Shown: piece after piece, positions 1 through 43,388 of the stretch
Layout of the letters: every line of letters begins with the position of its first letter
Numbering within the stretch: position 1 is the first letter of the stretch
Source of the DNA: a virus
Lineage: Duplodnaviria > Heunggongvirae > Uroviricota > Caudoviricetes
Direction: 5' to 3' (one strand)
Virus record (IMG/VR): IMGVR_UViG_2698536418_000010
DNA: 43,388 nt
Translations under genes and position numbers: made by a program
The notes under the pieces: model-generated
What the model was told of the DNA's origin: nothing
The model's database searches: none
Seen by the model: only the letters and a program-made list of their open reading frames with translations

Positions 1-100
1 AGGCAACTAAGCCTGCATTAATGCCAACTTTTAGCGCACGGCTCTCTCCCAAGAGCCATTTCCCTGGACCGAATACAGGAATCGTATTCGGTCTTTTTTT
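1..100 (+). ncRNA. sdsR: sRNA SdsR/RyeB-like gene (host); antisense RyeA expected on the minus strand
   Basis: Matches my recollection of the conserved SdsR sequence (GCCUGCAUUAAUGCCAACUUUUAGCGCACGGCUCUCUCCCAAGAGCC...GGACCGAAUACAGGAAUCGUAUUCGGUC + U-run); two stem-loops (41-58, 67-93); not verified by search. Confidence 0.45.
67..100 (+). terminator. Rho-independent terminator (10-bp stem gaccgaatac/gtattcggtc, loop aggaatc, T7)
   Basis: Perfect 10-bp inverted repeat followed by ttttttt at 94-100. Confidence 0.75.
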
Positions 101-160
101 AATTGTATTTAAAATCAATTAGTTGCAAACGTCTTCCCGAAATTCCCCGAAATTTACTCG

Positions 161-186
161 AATTTCTGTATTCCGGTCTTTTTTGG
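161..186 (+). repeat. Partial direct repeat of the sdsR terminator 3' half (att core-like), next to int
   Basis: gaatttctgtattccggtctttttt vs gaatcgtattcggtcttttttt at 80-100. Confidence 0.4.
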
Positions 187-231
187 TTATATCACAACCA
201 AAATACATTTAACAATCCATTTACGTTAAAA

Positions 232-1308
232 TCAGAGTAGTAAGTACGTTTTTTCTCTCTCATCAAGATACATTTTTGTTGTCTTCTCCGATGTGTGGCC
301 AAGTAGACGCTGAGCAAATTCTTCTCCACATGTTTCTTTGTACAATCGTCCAGCCAGACTTCTGATCTCGTGAAAAGTTGGTGGGTTTTCACTGAACTGG
401 ATACCTGTTAATTTTCTGGCTGCGACAAATTTTTTTGTCAGGCCATCCGGGTGAATGCTGCCGTCAGGGCTGTTTTTTCTAATCCCGGCACTGATTAGAT
501 AATCTCCCCGGCTTACCAGGCGGCACTGTTCAACTACTGTACCAAGCCGTAGACCAGCGACAGGAAGGCTGAGTGACAGGGGGATAGCAATCATCATTCC
601 TGTCTTAATTTGCCTGATGTGGAGACGATCATCATAAATATCACTAAAGCGCATATTCGTTATGTCTTCGCGACGTTGTCCTGTTACAAGGGCTAAATCC
701 ATAGCTAATGGGAACCATGCCGGAAGTTGATCTGCTGCCTCCCTGATGCAGTTGTATGTCTTTAGTTTCAGTCGTTCTCTTGTAACTACTATTTTCGGTG
801 CTCTTGTTGGCGTTACTGGATTTTGAGATATACGTCCATCAACAATGGCCTCACGAAACATATCAGACAACACAGAACGCATTGATCCTGCCATTGTGTT
901 TTTCCCTCCTTCAATCCACAAATCAAGAAACTCGGCAATATGGCGAGTGGTTATTTCTGTCAGTAAAATTTCCCCCAATTTTTCTTTTATTGTCTCCAGT
1001 TGATTTACCCGAATTTTATAAGTATTTCTGGACACTTTTCTCCTTATAAGAATCGTTTTGTAACGTTCAATCCAGTCTGCCATAGTAAATGAGTCGAACC
1101 CTTTAAGCTTTTCAATTAAGGCAGCAGGAGAGTAGTTTTTGTATATATAATGATTTGCTTCAATTGCCTGCGCTACTGCATCTCTTCTTGAAATTTTACC
1201 TAGTGTAAATTCTTCTTTCGTCAGAGGGTTGCGCCAGTAATATGCTTTGTCCCTCCTTCGATATGTTAAGTTTTTAGGCAAATTGGGATCGTATTTTTTC
1301 CGCTGCAT
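232..1308 (-). CDS. Tyrosine integrase, lambda Int family (358 aa)
   Basis: ORF with lambda-Int-like N-terminus and C-terminal catalytic region (…[11 protein letters not shown]…LLGH…Y); adjacent to att and xis. Confidence 0.9.
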
Positions 1309-1561
1309 GTTTTAACTTCTCCAGTAACGGACTGTCTCTCCCTTGTCGCCCATTAGGCTGATGGTGTGTTATATCGGTATCAACCTTATTTGGGTTGATA
1401 TAGAAAGCCTCCGGAACCACCCTGTAACTCCTCCCGTGTAGTTCAGGTGCAGGATAAATGTTTCCATTCCTTGCCCATCGTCTCAGCGTTGATATTGATG
1501 GTGGGTTATCCGGATATCTGAGTTTTCCCCACGTTTTGAGTGTCACAAGATTCATTGCCAT
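1274..1561 (-). CDS. Excisionase (Xis-like)
   Basis: Small ORF immediately upstream of int, overlapping its start; Xis-like wHTH motif (TLRRWARNG); exact start uncertain. Confidence 0.6.
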   Translation of the reverse strand: MAMNLVTLKTWGKLRYPDNPPSISTLRRWARNGNIYPAPELHGRSYRVVPEAFYINPNKVDTDITHHQPNGRQGRDSPLLEKLKHAAEKIRSQFA

Positions 1562-6412: not shown

Positions 6413-6820
6413 AATTATCTCCATTTTTACAAATGAATTTTGTCGATGCGGTGCCTGGTGCCTCCAGGTGACGTTAACCAGTTAACAATTAACGCCGGAT
6501 AATCCACCCATAACACTGATGCTTTTAACTGTGCCGCGTGCGCTTAGCCGCATTCACCGCATCACAAAATTCACTTTAAAAAGGGGCGGCAGGGCAGCCA
6601 CGGAGTAGAACTGATGCCGCCAAAGACTACACATAGCAATGTCGTTATTTACAACCGGAGGCGCACTCCCACCATTTAAATTTAACAGACAAGACCGACT
6701 CTTTATGGATATCGGAAATGCGCCTTCGTGTTGTGCCCGGTTTTATTTCACCACCTCCGGGCTTTGGTGGTTTCTGCTATACCCCTACAGCGAGAATATT
6801 GAATTAATCCAAATAATGGA

Positions 6821-11300: not shown

Positions 11301-11347
11301 GCCAAATTAACAATCGGAACTTCGTGAAGAGAAAGCATAATCCAAAT

Positions 11348-11398
11348 CTGAATAATTAAGTTCAGCACTGTAAATAAAATTTAATCCTTAACTGGAGG
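11348..11398 (+). repeat. Module-boundary repeat copy 1 (ctgaataattaa…tttaatccttaacNggagg)
   Basis: About 50-bp near-identical direct repeat of 12615-12663. Confidence 0.6.
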
Positions 11399-11405
11399 TA
11401 TATCT

Positions 11406-12288: not shown

Positions 12289-12622
12289 GTTAAGCAATAT
12301 CGTTTTATTTCCGGTAAAAGAGGATGACCCTCGTAATCAGGTTAATTTTCTTTATGAGCCATCGGAAAGACCATATTGTCATCACGCCTCTGTCCGGGTT
12401 GACGAAAAAGAGCGTCAGGTCCGCTGTAAAATCTGCGGTGCAGTTGTGGAACCATTTGACTGGATGCTCTCTGTGGCGAAAAGAGAAACCAGACTGGCAG
12501 ATGATGTAAGGCTCTTGCGTCAGGAGGAGCGGGAAAGGCGAAAAAATATAGAAAAGCTAATTCAGATTGAGCGTAACGCGAAAGCGCGGATACGCAGGGC
12601 GACAAAATCCAGAACTGAATAA
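12266..12622 (+). CDS. Hypothetical zinc-ribbon-like protein (118 aa)
   Basis: AAGGAGAG RBS; CHH…CKIC motif. Confidence 0.6.
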   Translation: MEIKPEDELSNIVLFPVKEDDPRNQVNFLYEPSERPYCHHASVRVDEKERQVRCKICGAVVEPFDWMLSVAKRETRLADDVRLLRQEERERRKNIEKLIQIERNAKARIRRATKSRTE

Positions 12623-12663
12623 TTAAATTTAGCTCTGTTAAAAATTTAATCCTTAACCGGAGG
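12615..12663 (+). repeat. Module-boundary repeat copy 2
   Basis: Near-identical to 11348-11398; here followed by no ORF. Confidence 0.6.
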
Positions 12664-12691
12664 GATTTCTGCACCCTTAGAACATCAGGAA

Positions 12692-14205: not shown

Positions 14206-14529
14206 GAAAAGTCCTTTTGAACATATAGGAATATATTAGAGCATGTATGTGTGCAATGCATAAAAGGAAAAGCTACCGCAAGGCGACTCCACCCACAGAT
14301 AGCTCTTAACTGATTGTTTGTAAAAAATAATACATTAATTATCTTCTGTGTAAAGAGGGAAACAGCCTTAGGGTAAGGGACACGAGTTGGAGGAGGATTG
14401 GTGAAATTTGCGTTGAGGATAAAACGATTTGCGGGAAAAGGATAGTTAAGTAGAATAGCTGCGGGTGCTTGAGGCTGTCTGCCTCGGGCATGAACACCAA
14501 CGGCAGATAGATAAAAGCCCCACCCGACT

Positions 14530-14600
14530 ATAAATCGAAGTGAGGCCCCTATATGCTCGTCACATATAGATTGCCTCTTACGGACCGAAAGGTCAAGGAG
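14530..14600 (-). ncRNA. Expected position of Sok-like antisense RNA (approximate)
   Basis: By analogy with hok/sok loci where antisense RNA overlaps the mok/hok leader; boundaries not defined. Confidence 0.25.
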
Positions 14601-14609
14601 AAGCAGGCT

Positions 14610-14765
14610 ATGAAGCAGCAAAAGGCGATGTTAGTCGCCCTGATCGTCATCTGTTTAACCGTCATAGTGACGGCACTGGTAACGAGGAAAGACCTCTGCG
14701 AGGTACGAATCCGAACCGGCCAGACGGAGGTCGCTGTCTTCACAGCTTACGAACCTGAGGAGTAA
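14610..14765 (+). CDS. hok: Hok/Gef-family type I toxin (51 aa)
   Basis: MKQQKAMLVALIVICLTVIVTALVTRKDLCEVRIRTGQTEVAVFTAYEPEE; in-frame upstream extension from 14553 (mok-like). Confidence 0.9.
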   Translation: MKQQKAMLVALIVICLTVIVTALVTRKDLCEVRIRTGQTEVAVFTAYEPEE

Positions 14766-16797: not shown

Positions 16798-16885
16798 CTC
16801 AATCTGTTATCCGGGGCTATATTCCTCACGCGCCAGCAAAATCTGGCGTCGGGATTAGGAACCCCGGATAGAGACCGCGACAGAC

Positions 16886-16908
16886 ACACGCCGCGAGCGT
16901 GTTTTTTA
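16886..16908 (+). terminator. Rho-independent terminator (acacgc-cgcga-gcgtgt + T6), candidate tR'
   Basis: Stem-loop followed by tttttt, about 90 bp after Q. Confidence 0.65.
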
Positions 16909-17070
16909 TTGTCGTATGCACGCGCACATCTGAATTATGGTGGGGCGTATGGGGGAGCTGAAAAGCTCGCCGGTTGGTTTCCCGGTAGTTCCTAACCCTG
17001 TACGTCTCACCACCCGATGATTAGGAACCTGACGGTGGTGATGGTTTAGAAACCACCAGAGGGCGTCATT

Positions 17071-38689: not shown

Positions 38690-39375
38690 TGGCGAAAAAT
38701 GACTTTAAAGCGTTTGCAACGGATCGAAATGCCAATGTTATGTCGCAGGAGGAATGGGAAGCGTTGCCTGCGCTTTTATCCGGATTTACAGCAGGGAAAG
38801 CATCCAGTGCGCAGGTGAACAAAGCCATTCGACAGGCCAGCTTTATTGCTGCAGCTCTGGCCCAGTTTGTAAGTGACAAAACGCAACGGGATGTGCTTGA
38901 TAATGGTGATCTGCCCGGTTTTGTTGAATTGCTTGGATCGGGGTTTGCTGTTGAATACCTGAGCCGCAAAAATCCGTTTGGCGATATCAAATCGGACGGC
39001 ACAGTGAAAACGGCTCTCGAAAACCTTGGTTTGGGAGAAGGCTCTGCATTACCGGTTGGGGTGCCTGTTCCGTGGCCTTCAGCCACTCCGCCAACAGGCT
39101 GGCTGAAATGCAACGGTGCCGCTTTTTCTGCTGAAGAATACCCGGAACTGGCAAAGGCTTATCCGGCAAATAAATTGCCTGATTTACGTGGTGAGTTTAT
39201 TCGTGGCTGGGATGACGGGCGTGGTATTGATGCTGTACGTGCCTTGCTAAGTCTTCAGAATGGAGGAGTGGAATCACACACCCACCAAGGGCAGCTCTTC
39301 AGAGTTAGTGATTATCGTACATATGTATGCAACTCGATGCCTGGGATGCTGAAACCAGTATCCCTGCCCTGCTAA
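38689..39375 (+). CDS. Tail fibre protein: constant N-terminal part + partial variable part, disrupted after codon …DYRT (about 39321) and fused out of frame to host-like sequence
   Basis: Residues from GEGSALPV… to …DYRT are identical to the minus-strand Sv copy at 42813-43310; divergent 17-aa tail; no tfa gene downstream. Confidence 0.7.
39022..39042 (+). promoter_or_regulatory. pix/gix-like recombination site inside tail-fibre gene (aaacc-tt-ggttt core)
   Basis: Palindromic core resembling recalled Gin/Pin crossover sites; same core at 41482-41493 and (inverted) 43309-43320. Confidence 0.45.
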
Positions 39376-39449
39376 ATGGCGAACACTCTGTCCTTTACCG
39401 TACCCGTTACGATCAACAATCTGATGCCTGGATTATGCGTCTTGCCTGA
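39322..39449 (+). pseudogene. 3' fragment of a host gene (yebV-like), truncated at the rearrangement junction
   Basis: Open frame …[37 protein letters not shown] starting exactly where tail-fibre homology ends. Confidence 0.3.
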
Positions 39450-39553
39450 TCCAAAAAGAACCCGTCGGCATGGCGGGTTATTTGTCCTGGTTATTCCCCC
39501 GTTGTAAAATCTCTCCTAAACTTAACGGTACGGCACCACACTTCGGGGATGAA

Positions 39554-39745
39554 ATGTTCGCGCTGGTACTTTTTGTTTGCTACCTGGATGGCGGTTGTGA
39601 AGATATTGTTGTGGATGTCTACAACACGGAACAGCAGTGTCTTTATTCTATGAGCGATCAACGGATCCGCCATGGCGGTTGTTTTCCGATTGAGGATTTT
39701 ATAGATGGTTTCTGGCGACCAGCACAGGAGTATGGTGATTTTTAA
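39554..39745 (+). CDS. YebW-like small protein (63 aa)
   Basis: MFALVLFVCYLDGGCEDIVVDVYNTEQQC…; matches my recollection of E. coli YebW next to pphA. Confidence 0.5.
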   Translation: MFALVLFVCYLDGGCEDIVVDVYNTEQQCLYSMSDQRIRHGGCFPIEDFIDGFWRPAQEYGDF

Positions 39746-40402
39746 TTATTGCAATTGCACAAGAGTCAGTTCGCCCCCAAAGACAGCACCGGTATCAATA
39801 TAATGCAGGTTGCCAATATCCACGCGATGTCGCAACGGTGTATGACCAAACCAGAAATGATCAGCACCTGTAATTCCCTGCCCTTTTTGGCGTTCACCTA
39901 ATCGCGAGCGGCTCCACAAGACCTGATGCAAATCAACGTCCTTTTGCCATTCATAAACATCATCTGGATAATCGGCATGAGCAATAACATGTTTGCCGGT
40001 ACGACTGTGTACTTCAAGAATAAAGGGCAAATGCTGACATTTTTCCAGCGCCGTTTTCGCTTGTTTCTGTTGATTATCTGCCAGCGCAATAAACCAGTCG
40101 CCGCCATTCATCAACCACAAAGACATCTGCTGGGATGCCAGCGCATCCATCGCCATCTGTTCATGATTGCCTCTTACCGCACGAACCCAATGTTGTTCCA
40201 GTAACTGCAGGCAACGTAAACTTTGCGGCCCACGATCGATAACGTCTCCCACTGAGATAAGTAAATCTCGCCACGGATCAAAACCACAATGCCATAATTT
40301 GCGGCGCAACTGCTCAAGACAACCGTGTATATCGCCAGAAAGCCAGATATGTCGCCATTGATGACCCGCAATTCTCTGATAAACGGGCGCAGGCTGTTTC
40401 AT
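39746..40402 (-). CDS. pphA: Ser/Thr protein phosphatase 1 (lambda-PPase family)
   Basis: Metallophosphatase motifs GDIHGC, GDVIDRG, GNHE; GGGAGG RBS; ATG at 40402 (track uses upstream TTG). Confidence 0.85.
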   Translation of the reverse strand: MKQPAPVYQRIAGHQWRHIWLSGDIHGCLEQLRRKLWHCGFDPWRDLLISVGDVIDRGPQSLRCLQLLEQHWVRAVRGNHEQMAMDALASQQMSLWLMNGGDWFIALADNQQKQAKTALEKCQHLPFILEVHSRTGKHVIAHADYPDDVYEWQKDVDLHQVLWSRSRLGERQKGQGITGADHFWFGHTPLRHRVDIGNLHYIDTGAVFGGELTLVQLQ

Positions 40403-40535
40403 CAATATTTTCCTCCCGCGCTAAAGATCACATAATCTTAACAAGAATGTTAAAAAACGCTGGACTCAGACAGTAGAGTGTGTGTTATGGTTGACTATAA
40501 AGTCAGCGAAGGAAATGCTTCTGGCTTTTAACAGA

Positions 40536-40561
40536 TAAAAAGAGACCGAACACGATTCCTG
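40536..40561 (-). repeat. Inverted copy of the sdsR terminator 3' half (att core-like; candidate attR)
   Basis: Minus strand reads aggaatcgtgttcggtctcttttt vs aggaatcgtattcggtcttttttt at 77-100. Confidence 0.5.
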
Positions 40562-40866
40562 TTTTCGTCAACAAACGACAAAATCCTTTAGAATTAATGT
40601 GTTAAATAAATTTATGCTCATCTTTTAATCCCTAACACATACCATTACATATTAATACATTCAATTAGTTACCATTTTTTTCGAGTTTTTTAGAGAAATT
40701 TTCGGGAATATTTCAGGTCAATCCATGCATACACAAGCAATTCCTGTATTGAATAATTCCGTAGCAATTATGTAAAATCACCTTCGGCTGATTTTCATTC
40801 AAACTCGCGCTATCGAACGTCCATCAGCCAGCCGTGGCACGTTCTTGCATACGACGTGCTGCGGTT

Positions 40867-41420
40867 TCATTTATCTCCGACCGGAAACTTCTTATACAAA
40901 GTCGATACGCCAACATCATAGATGATCTCCACATTCTGGCGATGAACTCCTGATGCAATTAGTCGCCCGGCCTGCGCCCATTGTTCTGATGAAAGTTCGG
41001 GACGGCGACCGCCAATTCGTCCCTGTGCGCGAGCAGCTTCCAGTCCAGCTTTTGTTCGTTCAACAATCAGTTCACGCTCCATTTCAGCCAGGGCACCCAT
41101 GACATGAAAAAAGAAACGGCCATTGGGGTGCTGGTATCAATACTGTCAGTCAGGCTTCGGAAATTCACGCCACGCTGACGCAACTCTTCTATCAGCGTAA
41201 CAAGATGCCGCATACTGCGCCCCAACCTGTCCAGCTTCCAGACAACCAGAGTGTCTCCTGCCGATAGTGTCCTGAGCAGTTTTTTAAGCCCCGGTCTGTC
41301 GGACTTAGTGCCACTGATTTTATCCTCAAAAACCCGCTCACATCCCGCGCAGTTCAGTGCATTACGTTGCAGATCGGTGTTCTGGTCATTTGTTGATACG
41401 CGTACATAGCCAATAAGCAT
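40867..41420 (-). pseudogene. Pin/Gin-family serine DNA invertase, frameshifted (1-nt loss in G-run near 41120)
   Basis: N-terminal 109 aa (MLIGYVRVSTNDQNTDLQ…SIDTSTPM) and C-terminal HTH part (MGALAEMERELIVERTKAGL…) are in different frames; window reads atggccgtttc where a functional pin would need atgggccgtttc. Confidence 0.8.
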
Positions 41421-41493
41421 GTTAAATCCCCTTGGTAAAAGCAGGAATGATGCCATTTGCTTGTTATTTCTGCATTTTCATAAACGTTGGTTT
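41414..41493. repeat. Left inverted repeat of invertible segment (pin start + pix site)
   Basis: 80 bp identical to reverse complement of 43309-43388. Confidence 0.85.
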
Positions 41494-41797
41494 AAGAGCA
41501 AGCGGGCAGTACACCGATAATTTGTTATTTACAGGTCCTGATGGTCTTAAGATTCAGGTGTTTCGCCGGACGCTCGCAAATTTGACTACTGTCGGTGTAG
41601 TAAATTCTGTGCCAGTGACTTTCCCTGTCCCGTTCCCTGTTAATTGCTGGGGCGTTTTTTCTACCAAATTAACATGGGTTCAGATAACTAACTCATGCGA
41701 GTGGGTAAGCAATACAGGATTTACCGCTCAGGTCATGATGAATATTGCTGTAAATACAAACACCTCAGACGCTATGTTTTTAGCTATAGGATATTAA
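41432..41797 (+). CDS. Tail-fibre variable C-terminal cassette Sv' (promoterless); first about 21 codons are read-through of the inverted repeat
   Basis: Open frame entering from the pix site; followed by tfa; N-terminus MVKAGMMPFACYFCIFINVGL is shared with the other cassette. Confidence 0.6.
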   Translation: MVKAGMMPFACYFCIFINVGLRASGQYTDNLLFTGPDGLKIQVFRRTLANLTTVGVVNSVPVTFPVPFPVNCWGVFSTKLTWVQITNSCEWVSNTGFTAQVMMNIAVNTNTSDAMFLAIGY

Positions 41798-41798
41798 T

Positions 41799-42239
41799 AT
41801 GAATCGTTTTGTGTTCAGTCCATCTGAGTCCCGTTTTTATGCCATCGAGTGGCAGGCTGATTATGTTGATAATAATTGTTGGCCACATGATGCCATTAAC
41901 GTTAGTGACAGCATTTATTATGAGTTTTCCGGCACTCCCCCTACAGGTAAGCAACTTATAACTTTAAATAACATGCCAGCATGGGGTGATATTCCTCCAC
42001 TTACACGAGAAGAATTAATTGTCGCTGCTGATGTGGAGAAGCAAAAAAGAATAGATTTAGCCAATGATTACATGAACGGTAAGCAATGGCCTGGTAAAGC
42101 AGCTATTGGTCGTCTGAAAGGTGAGGAACTGGCACAATATAATTTGTGGCTGGATTATCTGGGCGCACTGGAGCTGGTCGATACCGCCAGTGCGCCAGAT
42201 ATTGAATGGCCTACGCCTCCGGCAGTTCAGGCCAGATGA
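41799..42239 (+). CDS. Tail fibre assembly protein Tfa'
   Basis: 146 aa; C-terminal …APDIEWPTPPAV motif; starts 1 nt after Sv' stop. Confidence 0.8.
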   Translation: MNRFVFSPSESRFYAIEWQADYVDNNCWPHDAINVSDSIYYEFSGTPPTGKQLITLNNMPAWGDIPPLTREELIVAADVEKQKRIDLANDYMNGKQWPGKAAIGRLKGEELAQYNLWLDYLGALELVDTASAPDIEWPTPPAVQAR

Positions 42240-42813
42240 CATCCGGCGCGGTGCTGGTATCTGTTGCCGTCACCGCGTCAATGTAATCCAGCACAGTGTT
42301 AAGGCTGGTTGTTTCTGCCTGCGTCAGTTTACGTCCGGCCTGCAATTTCAGCTGAATCAGACTGATTGAAGCCATTGCAGTATCAATCAGTGACTGGCGC
42401 TGTGCTTCTGCTGCATCTACTGCGGCGCTATGCTGTGCTTCGGTATCCGTCACCCATTTCTCACCATCCCATTTATCGTATGGCGTTAACGGGGCGATAG
42501 TGGTTGTATTATCAGGGTAATCACCCGGAGCTGTGATTTCTTTTGATTCTCCTGTTTCGGTGCTAAAGACGATTTCACCGCGATGGTCTGGCACATATTC
42601 CCATGAGTTAAAATCTACAGATCGGCAGATTGCATAACCAGCTTTGTATGTGCCAGGGGCATCTAAACAGGAATATGCAGGGATACCGATACCAACGGCA
42701 AGATATTCAGTTGATGTGGAAATATATTCCCGTGTTTCGCCATCATAGTTATAGACGGTAATATTCCCCGCCTTTGTAGCAATAAACTCGCTATTTAATA
42801 CAGCGTTATCCAT
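42211..42813 (-). CDS. Tail fibre assembly protein Tfa
   Basis: 200 aa; C-terminal …APDVIWPELPEA; convergent with Tfa'. Confidence 0.8.
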   Translation of the reverse strand: MDNAVLNSEFIATKAGNITVYNYDGETREYISTSTEYLAVGIGIPAYSCLDAPGTYKAGYAICRSVDFNSWEYVPDHRGEIVFSTETGESKEITAPGDYPDNTTTIAPLTPYDKWDGEKWVTDTEAQHSAAVDAAEAQRQSLIDTAMASISLIQLKLQAGRKLTQAETTSLNTVLDYIDAVTATDTSTAPDVIWPELPEA

Positions 42814-43370
42814 TATGCAGCCCTCACGATATAGTTAAATGCAATATTCCGTGGACGGGTTTCATTTATCCCATATGCTGTTGTTCTCTGATTCCCGACA
42901 AAATATCCATTTGGATTAGAAGATACAGGATAATCATCAAAATCAAGTGGGCTATCAGCACCCGGCGTCAGGCTTGCAATATATCCTCTTCCCATAACTT
43001 CTGATGCTGGTATTTCTTTTGTACGATAATCACTAACTCTGAAGAGCTGCCCTTGGTGGGTGTGTGATTCCACTCCTCCATTCTGAAGACTTAGCAAGGC
43101 ACGTACAGCATCAATACCACGCCCGTCATCCCAGCCACGAATAAACTCACCACGTAAATCAGGCAATTTATTTGCCGGATAAGCCTTTGCCAGTTCCGGG
43201 TATTCTTCAGCAGAAAAAGCGGCACCGTTGCATTTCAGCCAGCCTGTTGGCGGAGTGGCTGAAGGCCACGGAACAGGCACCCCAACCGGTAATGCAGAGC
43301 CTTCTCCCAAACCAACGTTTATGAAAATGCAGAAATAACAAGCAAATGGCATCATTCCTGCTTTTACCAA
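42813..43370 (-). CDS. Tail-fibre variable C-terminal cassette Sv (full length; 5' part duplicated in the fibre gene at 39027-39321)
   Basis: Open frame entering from right pix site; contains the identical GEGSALPV…DYRT region then a 68-aa C-terminus. Confidence 0.65.
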   Translation of the reverse strand: MVKAGMMPFACYFCIFINVGLGEGSALPVGVPVPWPSATPPTGWLKCNGAAFSAEEYPELAKAYPANKLPDLRGEFIRGWDDGRGIDAVRALLSLQNGGVESHTHQGQLFRVSDYRTKEIPASEVMGRGYIASLTPGADSPLDFDDYPVSSNPNGYFVGNQRTTAYGINETRPRNIAFNYIVRAA

Positions 43371-43388
43371 GGGGATTTAACATGCTTA
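43309..43388. repeat. Right inverted repeat of invertible segment; contains start of a second pin gene on plus strand (ATG 43382)
   Basis: Reverse complement equals 41414-41493; atgctta at window edge equals the pin start ATG CTT A(TT). Confidence 0.8.

Follow-up and report, generated by a model that had tools for sequence, protein, structure and literature searches.

A temperate phage with a lambda-type Int/Xis module that probably resides in the intrinsic terminator of sdsR, with an inverted attR likely to be an assembly artefact

The sdsR gene and its antisense partner

The window analyzed here is the entire 43,388-bp draft contig CYCB01000038.1 (assembly GCA_001283405.1), which starts with the small RNA gene sdsR (ryeB) and then runs into a prophage whose early region is Rac-like (int, xis, ralR/RalA, recT, recE, and kilR) and whose late region resembles that of a myovirus and includes baseplate genes as well as a Pin-invertible tail-fibre segment. 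The assignment of sdsR to positions 1..100 (plus strand) draws on Rfam, on alignment with K-12, and on the phage attP. A sequence-only reading of this DNA had taken positions 1-100 for SdsR/RyeB together with its terminator, and this is confirmed by a full-length match to the Rfam model SdsR_RyeB (RF00111; model positions 1-100 of 100, 118.1 bits, E 1.5e-22, gathering score 38). The copy in the window differs from K-12 sdsR at two positions only, with A instead of G at 86 and T instead of C at 95. The K-12 annotation begins 4 nt further upstream, outside the contig, and the contig therefore starts either at the SdsR transcript start or 4 nt inside it, which places the expected RpoS-dependent promoter beyond the window. 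The position of sdsR between yebY and pphA is also found here, considering that the reconstructed empty site aligns without gaps to the K-12 sdsR-pphA-yebW-yebV region and that yebY, which itself falls outside the contig, lies directly upstream of sdsR in lysogens with the same attL.

The opposite strand carries the 3' part of the antisense RNA SraC/RyeA (1..104, minus strand; RF00101, 136 bits), truncated by the contig end; in K-12, RyeA starts 38 nt past the sdsR 3' end. A minus-strand promoter-like sequence (TTTGCA-16-TACAAT, 129->102) could drive a chimeric RyeA; one such site was found against 3.5 expected, and it is poorly kept in relatives of 74% identity.

The intrinsic terminator hairpin of SdsR was located at 66..94 (plus strand) by a terminator scan (fold -15.8 kcal/mol, z -3.9), and consists of an 11-bp stem (66-76 with 84-94) and a 7-nt loop, AGGAATC (77-83). 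Comparison with attB and attP divides the gene into a bacterial part (nt 1-74), a common core (75-85), and a part derived from the phage (86-100), comprising the 3' half of the stem and the U-tract. Within this last part, a native U-G pair is replaced by U-A and the U7 tract is uninterrupted, and the predicted hairpin energy is -15.8 kcal/mol in the native and lysogen forms alike. Since the crossover is placed inside 75-85 (see below), nucleotides 86-100 of SdsR are, by these alignments, phage DNA, with which a terminator of equal predicted stability has been rebuilt. The proposal that the phage supplies a replacement terminator thus stands in this form.

Integrase and excisionase

The first prophage gene, int (232..1308, minus strand), encodes a lambda-family tyrosine integrase of 358 aa, as recognized from homology to lambda Int and from Pfam domains PF00589, PF22022, and PF09003. 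Its stop codon lies 131 bp from the SdsR 3' end, in agreement with the roughly 130 bp noted earlier. The protein shares 38% identity with lambda Int and 41% with HK022 Int over 97% of its length, and comparison with the lambda Int structures in PDB (5J0N/1Z1B) gave an E value of 5e-72 with R212, K235, H308, R311, H333, and Y342 all aligned. The catalytic tyrosine-recombinase domain is represented by the PF00589 match, and an arm-DNA-binding domain by PF09003 at residues 3-61 (28.1 bits, cut-off 22) and by similarity of the N-terminus to the arm-binding domain in 1KJK (E 3.9e-4). The start of int is overlapped by an open reading frame for an excisionase, xis (1274..1561, minus strand), which matches PF07825 (Excisionase-like, E 6.5e-14) and is called excisionase in RefSeq genomes.

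Attachment sites and reconstruction of the empty locus

The empty site (attB) of K-12 reads CCGAAT-ACAGGAATCGT-G-TTCGGTCT-C-TTTTTATCTG. The attP of a free phage, PP818812.1, which shares 96.5% identity with the window in its integrase region, reads GACGAAA-ACAGGAATCGT-A-TTCGGTCT-T-TTTTTAATTG, and a second intact attP was found in an IMG/VR contig (L038). The attL in the window combines the left part of attB with the right part of attP, and its attR combines the left part of attP with the right part of attB. The crossover block ACAGGAATCGT lies at 75..85 (plus strand) in attL, as defined by the K-12 attB, the PP818812.1 attP, and the reconstructions described below, and its reverse complement lies at 40552..40562 (minus strand) in attR.

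When attB was rebuilt by joining 1-85 to the reverse complement of 39322-40551, the product aligned without gaps to the K-12 sdsR-pphA-yebW-yebV region over 1315/1315 bp (99.3%), which is the comparison with a prophage-free locus that the sequence-only reading had proposed. Joining of both phage arms gave an attP that aligned without gaps to the free phage over 1534 bp (94.1%). An empty attB and an intact attP found elsewhere therefore recombine on paper to the observed junctions, and integration at the sdsR 3' end, as originally suggested, is supported by the K-12 attB, the free attP, and 228 complete lysogen genomes. The right junction was likewise recognized correctly as adjoining pphA: pphA starts at 40403, which is 133 bp away from 40536, and the flank is native pphA-sdsR intergenic DNA. 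An inverted copy of the attL region, previously placed at 40536-40561, was recovered in a self-comparison in which 70-101 matches 40567-40536 in inverted orientation (90.6% over 32 bp). What had to be given up is the identification of the att core with the ggtct sequence and its T-run: the T-run region differs between attP and attB, and the core is instead ACAGGAATCGT at 75-85.

Right end of the contig and the inverted attR

The right end of the contig has an unusual organization. A Pin crossover site (pixL, 39014..39039) marks the transition from Sc, the constant 5' part of the tail-fibre gene, to Sv', which, like Sv1, is one of the alternative variable parts carried on the invertible segment. 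It is followed by the first 300 bp of the Sv' segment (39021..39321, plus strand), an inverted duplicate of 43020-43320 (99.7% by self-BLAST) in which 39021-39321 and 43320-43020 are 100% identical from the pix centre inwards (296 bp). A blunt novel junction at 39321..39322 connects Sv' to the interior of yebV, where an inverted chromosomal flank begins (39322..40551, minus strand) that contains a yebV 3' fragment (39322-39449), yebW (39554-39745), pphA (39747-40403, minus strand), the RyeA promoter and 5' end (about 40463-40536), and the native sdsR 3' end (40537-40551). Beyond attR lies a frameshifted DNA invertase gene, pinE (40867..41420, minus strand), which was recognized by the Pfam Resolvase and HTH_7 domains on its fragments and is called pinE in RefSeq genomes; relative to the pinE of CFS3292 it lacks 1 bp near 41115-41125, which puts it out of frame beyond about residue 100 and could be a sequencing error. 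A second pix site (41475..41500) forms the pinE/Sv1 junction, the invertible segment (41489..43313) carries Sv1, two tail-fibre assembly genes, and Sv', and a third pix site (43302..43327) forms a pinE/Sv' junction of the opposite flip state. The last feature, at 43309..43388 (plus strand), is an 80-bp perfect inverted copy of 41414-41493 (the pinE leader and the first 7 nt of pinE) that runs to the exact contig end. The three pairs of 26-bp pix half-sites (Sc/Sv', pinE/Sv1, and pinE/Sv') represent both flip states in one contig, and because one canonical molecule cannot hold all three junctions, the contig mixes flip states.

The order in complete genomes is yebY, sdsR(+), attL, int(-), prophage, pinE(+), attR, pphA(+), yebW(-), yebV(-), and the block 39322-41493 (yebV interior, yebW, pphA, attR, and pinE) is inverted with respect to every complete genome examined. 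The cores of attL and attR are accordingly inverted in the deposited contig but direct in the complete genomes examined. Integration yields no inverted att sites, and so the inverted attR, which the sequence-only reading had recorded without giving a cause, calls for another explanation. The 39321/39322 junction had no match in 5,426 complete E. coli genomes or in GTDB representative genomes, and no microhomology was found at it. A 10-bp palindrome, TACATATGTA, is formed across the junction, off-centre by 1 nt and without a template-switch signature. A Pin-mediated origin of the 39321 junction was considered and rejected, as this end lies 300 bp from the nearest pix site.

Several results point to a misjoin. 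Window positions 1-39321 and the reverse complement of 39322-43019 overlap on 301 bp, the contig re-oriented in this way is collinear with strain CFS3292 except in how the invertible segment is flipped, and the re-orientation of 39322-43019 restores a complete tail-fibre open reading frame of 279 aa. After re-orientation, attL and attR are direct repeats about 41.7 kb apart, and flipping of the last 4 kb gives the order of the 228 complete genomes. As judged from the assembled contig, the inverted attR is probably a misjoin at the Pin-invertible tail-fibre segment and not a biological feature. Most simply, the culture would have held both orientations of the invertible segment, the assembler would have walked from pinE through the segment to pinE until it met its own reverse complement, and a scaffolding or gap-closing step would then have joined the last 4 kb (39322-43388) back to front. 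Two observations complicate this explanation. The 39321/39322 junction is blunt and lies in sequence that is unique on both sides, and heterogeneity alone is insufficient: a mixed population leaves the junction unexplained, and an additional scaffolding or gap-closing error is needed. Furthermore, as pinE is frameshifted, mixed orientations would imply that the genome encodes a further invertase or that the frameshift is a sequencing error.

A real rearrangement, in which the stretch from 300 bp of Sv' through pix, pinE, attR, pphA, and yebW to part of yebV was duplicated and Pin inversions among three pix sites turned the attR-pphA region, seems unlikely to us, although it has points in its favor. 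The three pix sites occur with the expected half-site combinations in one contig, the exact contig can be derived on paper from a tandem duplication and two subsequent Pin inversions, and long-range rearrangement at this locus has a real precedent in NZ_CP027766.1, where the sdsR-int and pphA matches are 1.1 Mb apart. Such a history, however, requires an illegitimate duplication junction with zero homology plus two inversions, whereas a single block flip explains the rest and restores an intact tail-fibre gene. The absence of the junction from both genome sets, the complete identity of the duplicated 296 bp, the exact coincidence of the contig end with that of a perfect 80-bp self-inverted repeat, and the frameshift in the local pinE also speak against it. 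If the inversion were real, Int/Xis could only invert the prophage and not excise it, and the prophage would be locked in. The probable misjoin carries a lesson for data quality, in that inverted att sites from drafts crossing invertible segments need reads before they are given a biological reading.

Candidate integrase and IHF sites in the two arms

The P' arm of the phage att site (86..231, plus strand) is contiguous with the core in the free phage and is kept in a first set of relatives, 73 IMG/VR loci with the integrase type of the window. Between the core and the arm repeats, in a position like that of H', lies a candidate IHF site that matches the consensus (AATCAATTAGTTG, 113..125, plus strand); this is the single exact match to the IHF consensus WATCAANNNNTTR on either strand of the whole window, and exact or one-mismatch IHF sites occur at the same offset in relatives. 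Three tandem arm-type repeats, candidate Int sites, follow at 136..166 (plus strand), namely CCCGAAATT at 136-144, CCCGAAATT at 146-154, and CTCGAATTT at 158-166. The two copies of CCCGAAATT at 136-144 and 146-154 are the exact ones, against about 0.3 expected in 43 kb on both strands (estimated as 2 x 43388 / 4^9). With up to one mismatch allowed, CCCGAAATT is not enriched window-wide (13 found, 14.4 expected), and the support for arm sites therefore comes from position and cross-lineage conservation.

Conservation was examined in a second set of relatives, consisting of 120 loci detected with the core as pattern in a scan of one genome per species. In 18/120 loci the geometry is that of the window, with an Int homologue (46-81% identity) on the opposite strand 73-137 bp rightward from the core. 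These loci come from Citrobacter, Enterobacter, Pseudescherichia, Phytobacter, Atlantibacter, Lelliottia, Trabulsiella, and Brenneria, among others. Fourteen of these 18 P' arms align gaplessly. CGAA is invariant in the three repeats, at +61, +71, and +82 from the core start, in 14/14 aligned arms, and the information content across these arms is 1.2-1.4 bits/column in the repeats compared with 0.67 in a spacer of equal length. The repeats also have lineage-specific flavours (CCCGAAAT, CTCGAAAT, TCCGAAAT, and CACGAAAA), each present in all three repeats together.

The P arm lies at 40563..40834 (minus strand), where 40834 marks the end of the module shared with L001. Its tandem repeats (CNCGAA/CTGAAA) occupy 40675-40717, and an IHF-like site with one mismatch lies at 40659-40671. 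Three unrelated P-arm types occur at the same attB, each with between two and four copies of CNCGAA at a distance of about 120-160 bp from the core. On the basis of their fixed position, their tandem arrangement, their concerted change with the integrase, and their presence on both arms, the cccgaaatt/CGAA repeats are very probably arm-type Int sites. Their earlier nomination as candidate arm sites has thereby gained the support of fixed offsets in 14 elements from many genera, a pattern read from alignment. The arm motif C-N-CGAAAT resembles the core half-site of the element itself, CCGAAT.

The repeat at 161-186

The P' arm also contains a second, degenerate copy of the terminator 3' half (161..186, plus strand), which includes a C'-like sequence, TATTCCGGTCTTTTTT. 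This stretch (ctgtattccggtctttttt) is a partial direct repeat of 84-100, as the sequence-only reading had noticed, but it is not the copy of the att core, or junction, for which it had been taken, since it lies inside the P' arm of the free phage. The repeat occurs in PP818812.1 and has been retained in related elements, its core sequence TAT(T/C)C(G/T)G is found at a fixed offset in 14 elements with 0.96 bits/column compared with 0.46 just beyond, and together with the third arm repeat it makes up a degenerate copy of the whole core. Two candidate terminators were rejected because they folded no better than shuffled sequence, namely the 161-186 repeat (-2.6 kcal/mol, z 0.3) and the free attP core (z 0.6).

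By comparison with the free phage and its relatives, 161-186 belongs to the interior of the phage P' arm, where it is conserved, and is neither an att junction nor a scar. That it was instead left as a scar by a previous integration, or serves as a spare terminator, and stands outside the recombination apparatus is quite unlikely. The repeat does resemble the terminator 3' half with its T-run, and in a related prophage (L030) the 86 bp between both terminator-half copies have been lost, with the break inside the common GGTCTTTTTT, which fits slippage between direct repeats. Against this, 161-186 lacks a terminator fold, belongs to the free phage, and keeps TAT(T/C)C(G/T)G at one offset throughout the 14 elements, where identity to the integrase of the window is just 46-81% and the neighbouring columns have diverged. 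Maintenance of this core amid diverged neighbours points to selection rather than to a decaying scar.

As for what such a conserved arm element might do, 158-180 (the third repeat, CTCGAAT, plus the C'-like TATTC(C)GGTCT) might be a pseudo-core that works as a second dock for the core-binding domain of Int, for example in directionality or Int sequestration. We regard this role as unlikely. The stretch mimics the SdsR terminator and core, and it keeps a fixed offset across the integrase clade in many enterobacterial genera. In the lambda paradigm, arm and core sequences are unrelated, and docking at a pseudo-core, if true, would depart from that paradigm.

Proposed localization of strand exchange within the terminator loop

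Of the stretches shared by attB and attP, only the 11-bp ACAGGAATCGT has attB/attP differences on both sides (T/A on the left, G/A on the right), and it corresponds to the 7-nt terminator loop AGGAATC with two closing base pairs on each side. Since attL and attR are attB/attP hybrids that switch inside this block, strand exchange is, by comparison of the four sites, placed within ACAGGAATCGT (75-85). The loop is identical in attP and attB and lies between the stem halves; the left half-site of attP is imperfect (CGAAAAC). These features suggest a mechanism in which the core-binding domains of Int would bind the stem halves CCGAATAC and GTATTCGG as inverted core-type sites, and strands would be exchanged across the 7-bp loop as the overlap region. 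The arm-binding domain of Int would bind the three CGAA repeats of the P' arm (+61, +71, and +82 from the core start) and the similar P-arm repeats (about -118 to -160), and IHF would bend the DNA at 113-125.

A crossover further right, in TTCGGTCT (87-94), with an attB in this strain that already had A at 86, could be imagined because TTCGGTCT is also common to attP and attB and A at this position is the commoner base in other Enterobacterales (84/110 sdsR-linked copies), but it is highly improbable: A at 86 is present in two independent free attP sequences (PP818812.1 and L038), the attR of the window has G followed by a K-12-type flank, as do E. coli representatives in GTDB, so that a bacterial G at attR and a phage-derived A at attL place the exchange left of position 86, and TTCGGTCT, as one arm of the stem, is better suited to a core-type binding site than to an overlap region. 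Overall, we consider it likely that a temperate phage with a lambda-type Int/Xis module sits in the intrinsic terminator of sdsR and that the inverted attR-pphA arrangement is an assembly artefact.

Occurrence and predicted consequences for SdsR, RyeA, and pphA

The site is empty in 5,189/5,426 complete E. coli genomes and interrupted in 237 (~4%); in 228 of the 5,426, the int type of the window adjoins sdsR and the same pinE-att-pphA junction is present. Integration splits RyeA, whose 3' part remains at attL while its promoter and initial ~53 nt remain beside pphA at attR (window about 40463-40551), so that these and pphA lie about 41.7 kb away from sdsR. It has been reported that most pphA transcription starts at the sdsR promoter and passes through the sdsR terminator, a process disturbed by transcription of ryeA (Choi et al. 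2019, PMC6610125). The prophage should sever both connections in the strain studied here. As SdsR is kept, the RyeA promoter and ~53 nt are removed, and pphA is split from the sdsR promoter, an altered SdsR/RyeA/pphA circuit is predicted for the ~4% of complete E. coli genomes that are interrupted (237/5,426, of which 228 have the integrase of the window), as reported for PhiW104.

Comparison with known systems

Integration into the sdsR terminator is already known, and the window is an instance of a published phenomenon. As related in PMC7380047, the att site of the Salmonella phage PhiW104 lies within the last 23 bp of ryeB, internal to ryeA, PhiW104 lysogeny replaces the 5' portion of RyeA with RyeA going down and RyeB up, and the ryeA/ryeB locus was called a hot spot for acquired DNA (Balbontin et al. 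2008, J Bacteriol 190:4075). The sequence-only reading had described the sdsR 3' end as a reported insertion hot spot, and by that account of PhiW104 it is one. In addition, ryeB is among the known phage targets (Bobay et al. 2013) and serves as an integration-site name in the Citrobacter prophage Cfr111.52.RyeB. The incremental contributions here are the 11-bp crossover block of E. coli, the cross-genus lambda-like arm layout, and the conserved pseudo-core. Our element shares with PhiW104 the target gene and the place within ryeB, and differs in that its host is E. coli, where attB deviates from attP at 86 and 95; these two differences limit the common block to 11 bp and make the crossover localizable.

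In its tail-fibre region, the element is similar to Din-family systems (Pin/Gin/Cin/Hin), with a resolvase-type gene, pinE, beside a 1.8-kb segment that carries opposed tail-fibre C-termini and assembly genes and is bounded by 26-bp sites with a central TT. Unlike a canonical element of this family, the contig has three sites, both flip states, and a frameshifted pinE.

In its integration module, the element resembles lambda and HK022 in having a full-length Int homologue (38-41% identity) with an arm-binding domain and catalytic residues, and an Xis-family gene overlapping int. The P'1-P'3 sites of lambda lie on the int-proximal arm at about +60 to +85. Here too, a core and a candidate IHF site are accompanied by three tandem repeats on the int-proximal arm at ~+60 to +85, and more repeats are found on the other arm. 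The differences from lambda are that the target is the terminator hairpin of a small RNA rather than the gal-bio attB, that the arm motif C-N-CGAAAT is unrelated to that of lambda, and that an extra C'-like half-site follows the third repeat.

Integrases that use tRNA stem-loops have been proposed to follow a symmetric hairpin logic (Williams 2002, cited in PMC3603311). Like the prophages and islands at tRNA and tmRNA 3' ends described there (PMC3603311), the present element uses a conserved RNA-gene hairpin with dyad symmetry and a proposed crossover in the loop, and its copy of the 3' end of the gene keeps the RNA intact. Unlike them, its target is an Hfq-dependent regulatory small RNA with an overlapping antisense partner, so that the sense RNA is kept, the antisense RNA is decapitated, and pphA is uncoupled.

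Distribution and rearrangement of the sdsR attachment site

The scan of GTDB genomes (one per species) with the att core as the pattern shows an A at SdsR position 86 in most genera; E. coli, Klebsiella, Raoultella, and Pantoea have G there, and the phage copy carries A, the commoner base. Of the 121 core copies, 11 have no sdsR before them; these 11 represent attR or attP sites. Several of the integrase matches beside sdsR are short fragments, a pattern in the scanned sequences that is consistent with decayed islands. In the complete genome of E. coli 2013C-3342 (NZ_CP027766.1; hits H16 and H73), the sdsR-int junction lies at ~1.815 Mb and yebW-pphA at ~0.702 Mb, and this separation of 1.1 Mb indicates a real large rearrangement, one end of which falls within the prophage inserted here or close to it.

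An attP matching the enterobacterial sdsR terminator is present in PP818812.1 (L005), which was deposited as 'Actinobacillus phage vB_Apl-pPE4' with Actinobacillus pleuropneumoniae as host, and its int region is 96.5% identical to that of this E. coli prophage. The host label looks doubtful; the phage may have been induced from E. coli or may reflect E. coli contamination.

Structure and other features of the prophage contig

At 39321-39322 of the window, tail-fibre DNA is joined bluntly to the middle of yebV. The window also contains a 301-bp inverted self-duplicate (39021-39321 / 43020-43320) and a perfect 80-bp one (41414-41493 / 43309-43388), whose last base is the contig end. The fold-back is probably a misassembly across the Pin-invertible segment. 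The pinE gene (40867-41420, minus strand) has a 1-bp deletion relative to strain CFS3292 (CCAAT-GGCCG) that shifts its reading frame beyond about residue 100. Because the junctions of both flip states are nevertheless present in the contig, either another invertase acts in trans or the frameshift is a sequencing error.

Several known regulatory RNAs, namely RalA, DicF, sok, and isrK / C4 / c4-a1b1, are encoded in the prophage (regions 1666-1844, 6584-6635, 14463-14612, and 16817-17017), all scoring above the Rfam gathering thresholds. RalA is the antitoxin of RalR, sok is accompanied by hokD, and the isrK / C4 / c4-a1b1 cluster is of the kind typically seen in P1/Gifsy-type antirepressor control. 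A 70-bp direct repeat with 83% identity (11336-11405 and 12603-12670) is located in the early or replication region.

Organization of the P' arm

A promoter-like sequence (TTTGCA-16-TACAAT; window 102-129, minus strand) in the phage P' arm is directed into sdsR antisense and overlaps the IHF site; judging from its position, it could produce a chimeric RyeA-like RNA, and such a motif is not statistically distinguished (1 found vs 3.5 expected).

The attL of the related prophage L030 (IMGVR_UViG_2728369554_000022) lacks the 86 bp that separate the core copy from the second copy of GGTCTTTTTT. Since this deletion takes out the IHF site along with the three arm repeats, L030 can probably no longer excise.

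When window 136-180 is compared with 68-94, the arm-type repeat CCGAAAT is similar to the core half-site CCGAATA, and the third arm repeat and the TATTCCGG that follows it form a degenerate second core. In lambda, arm sequences are unrelated to core sequences.
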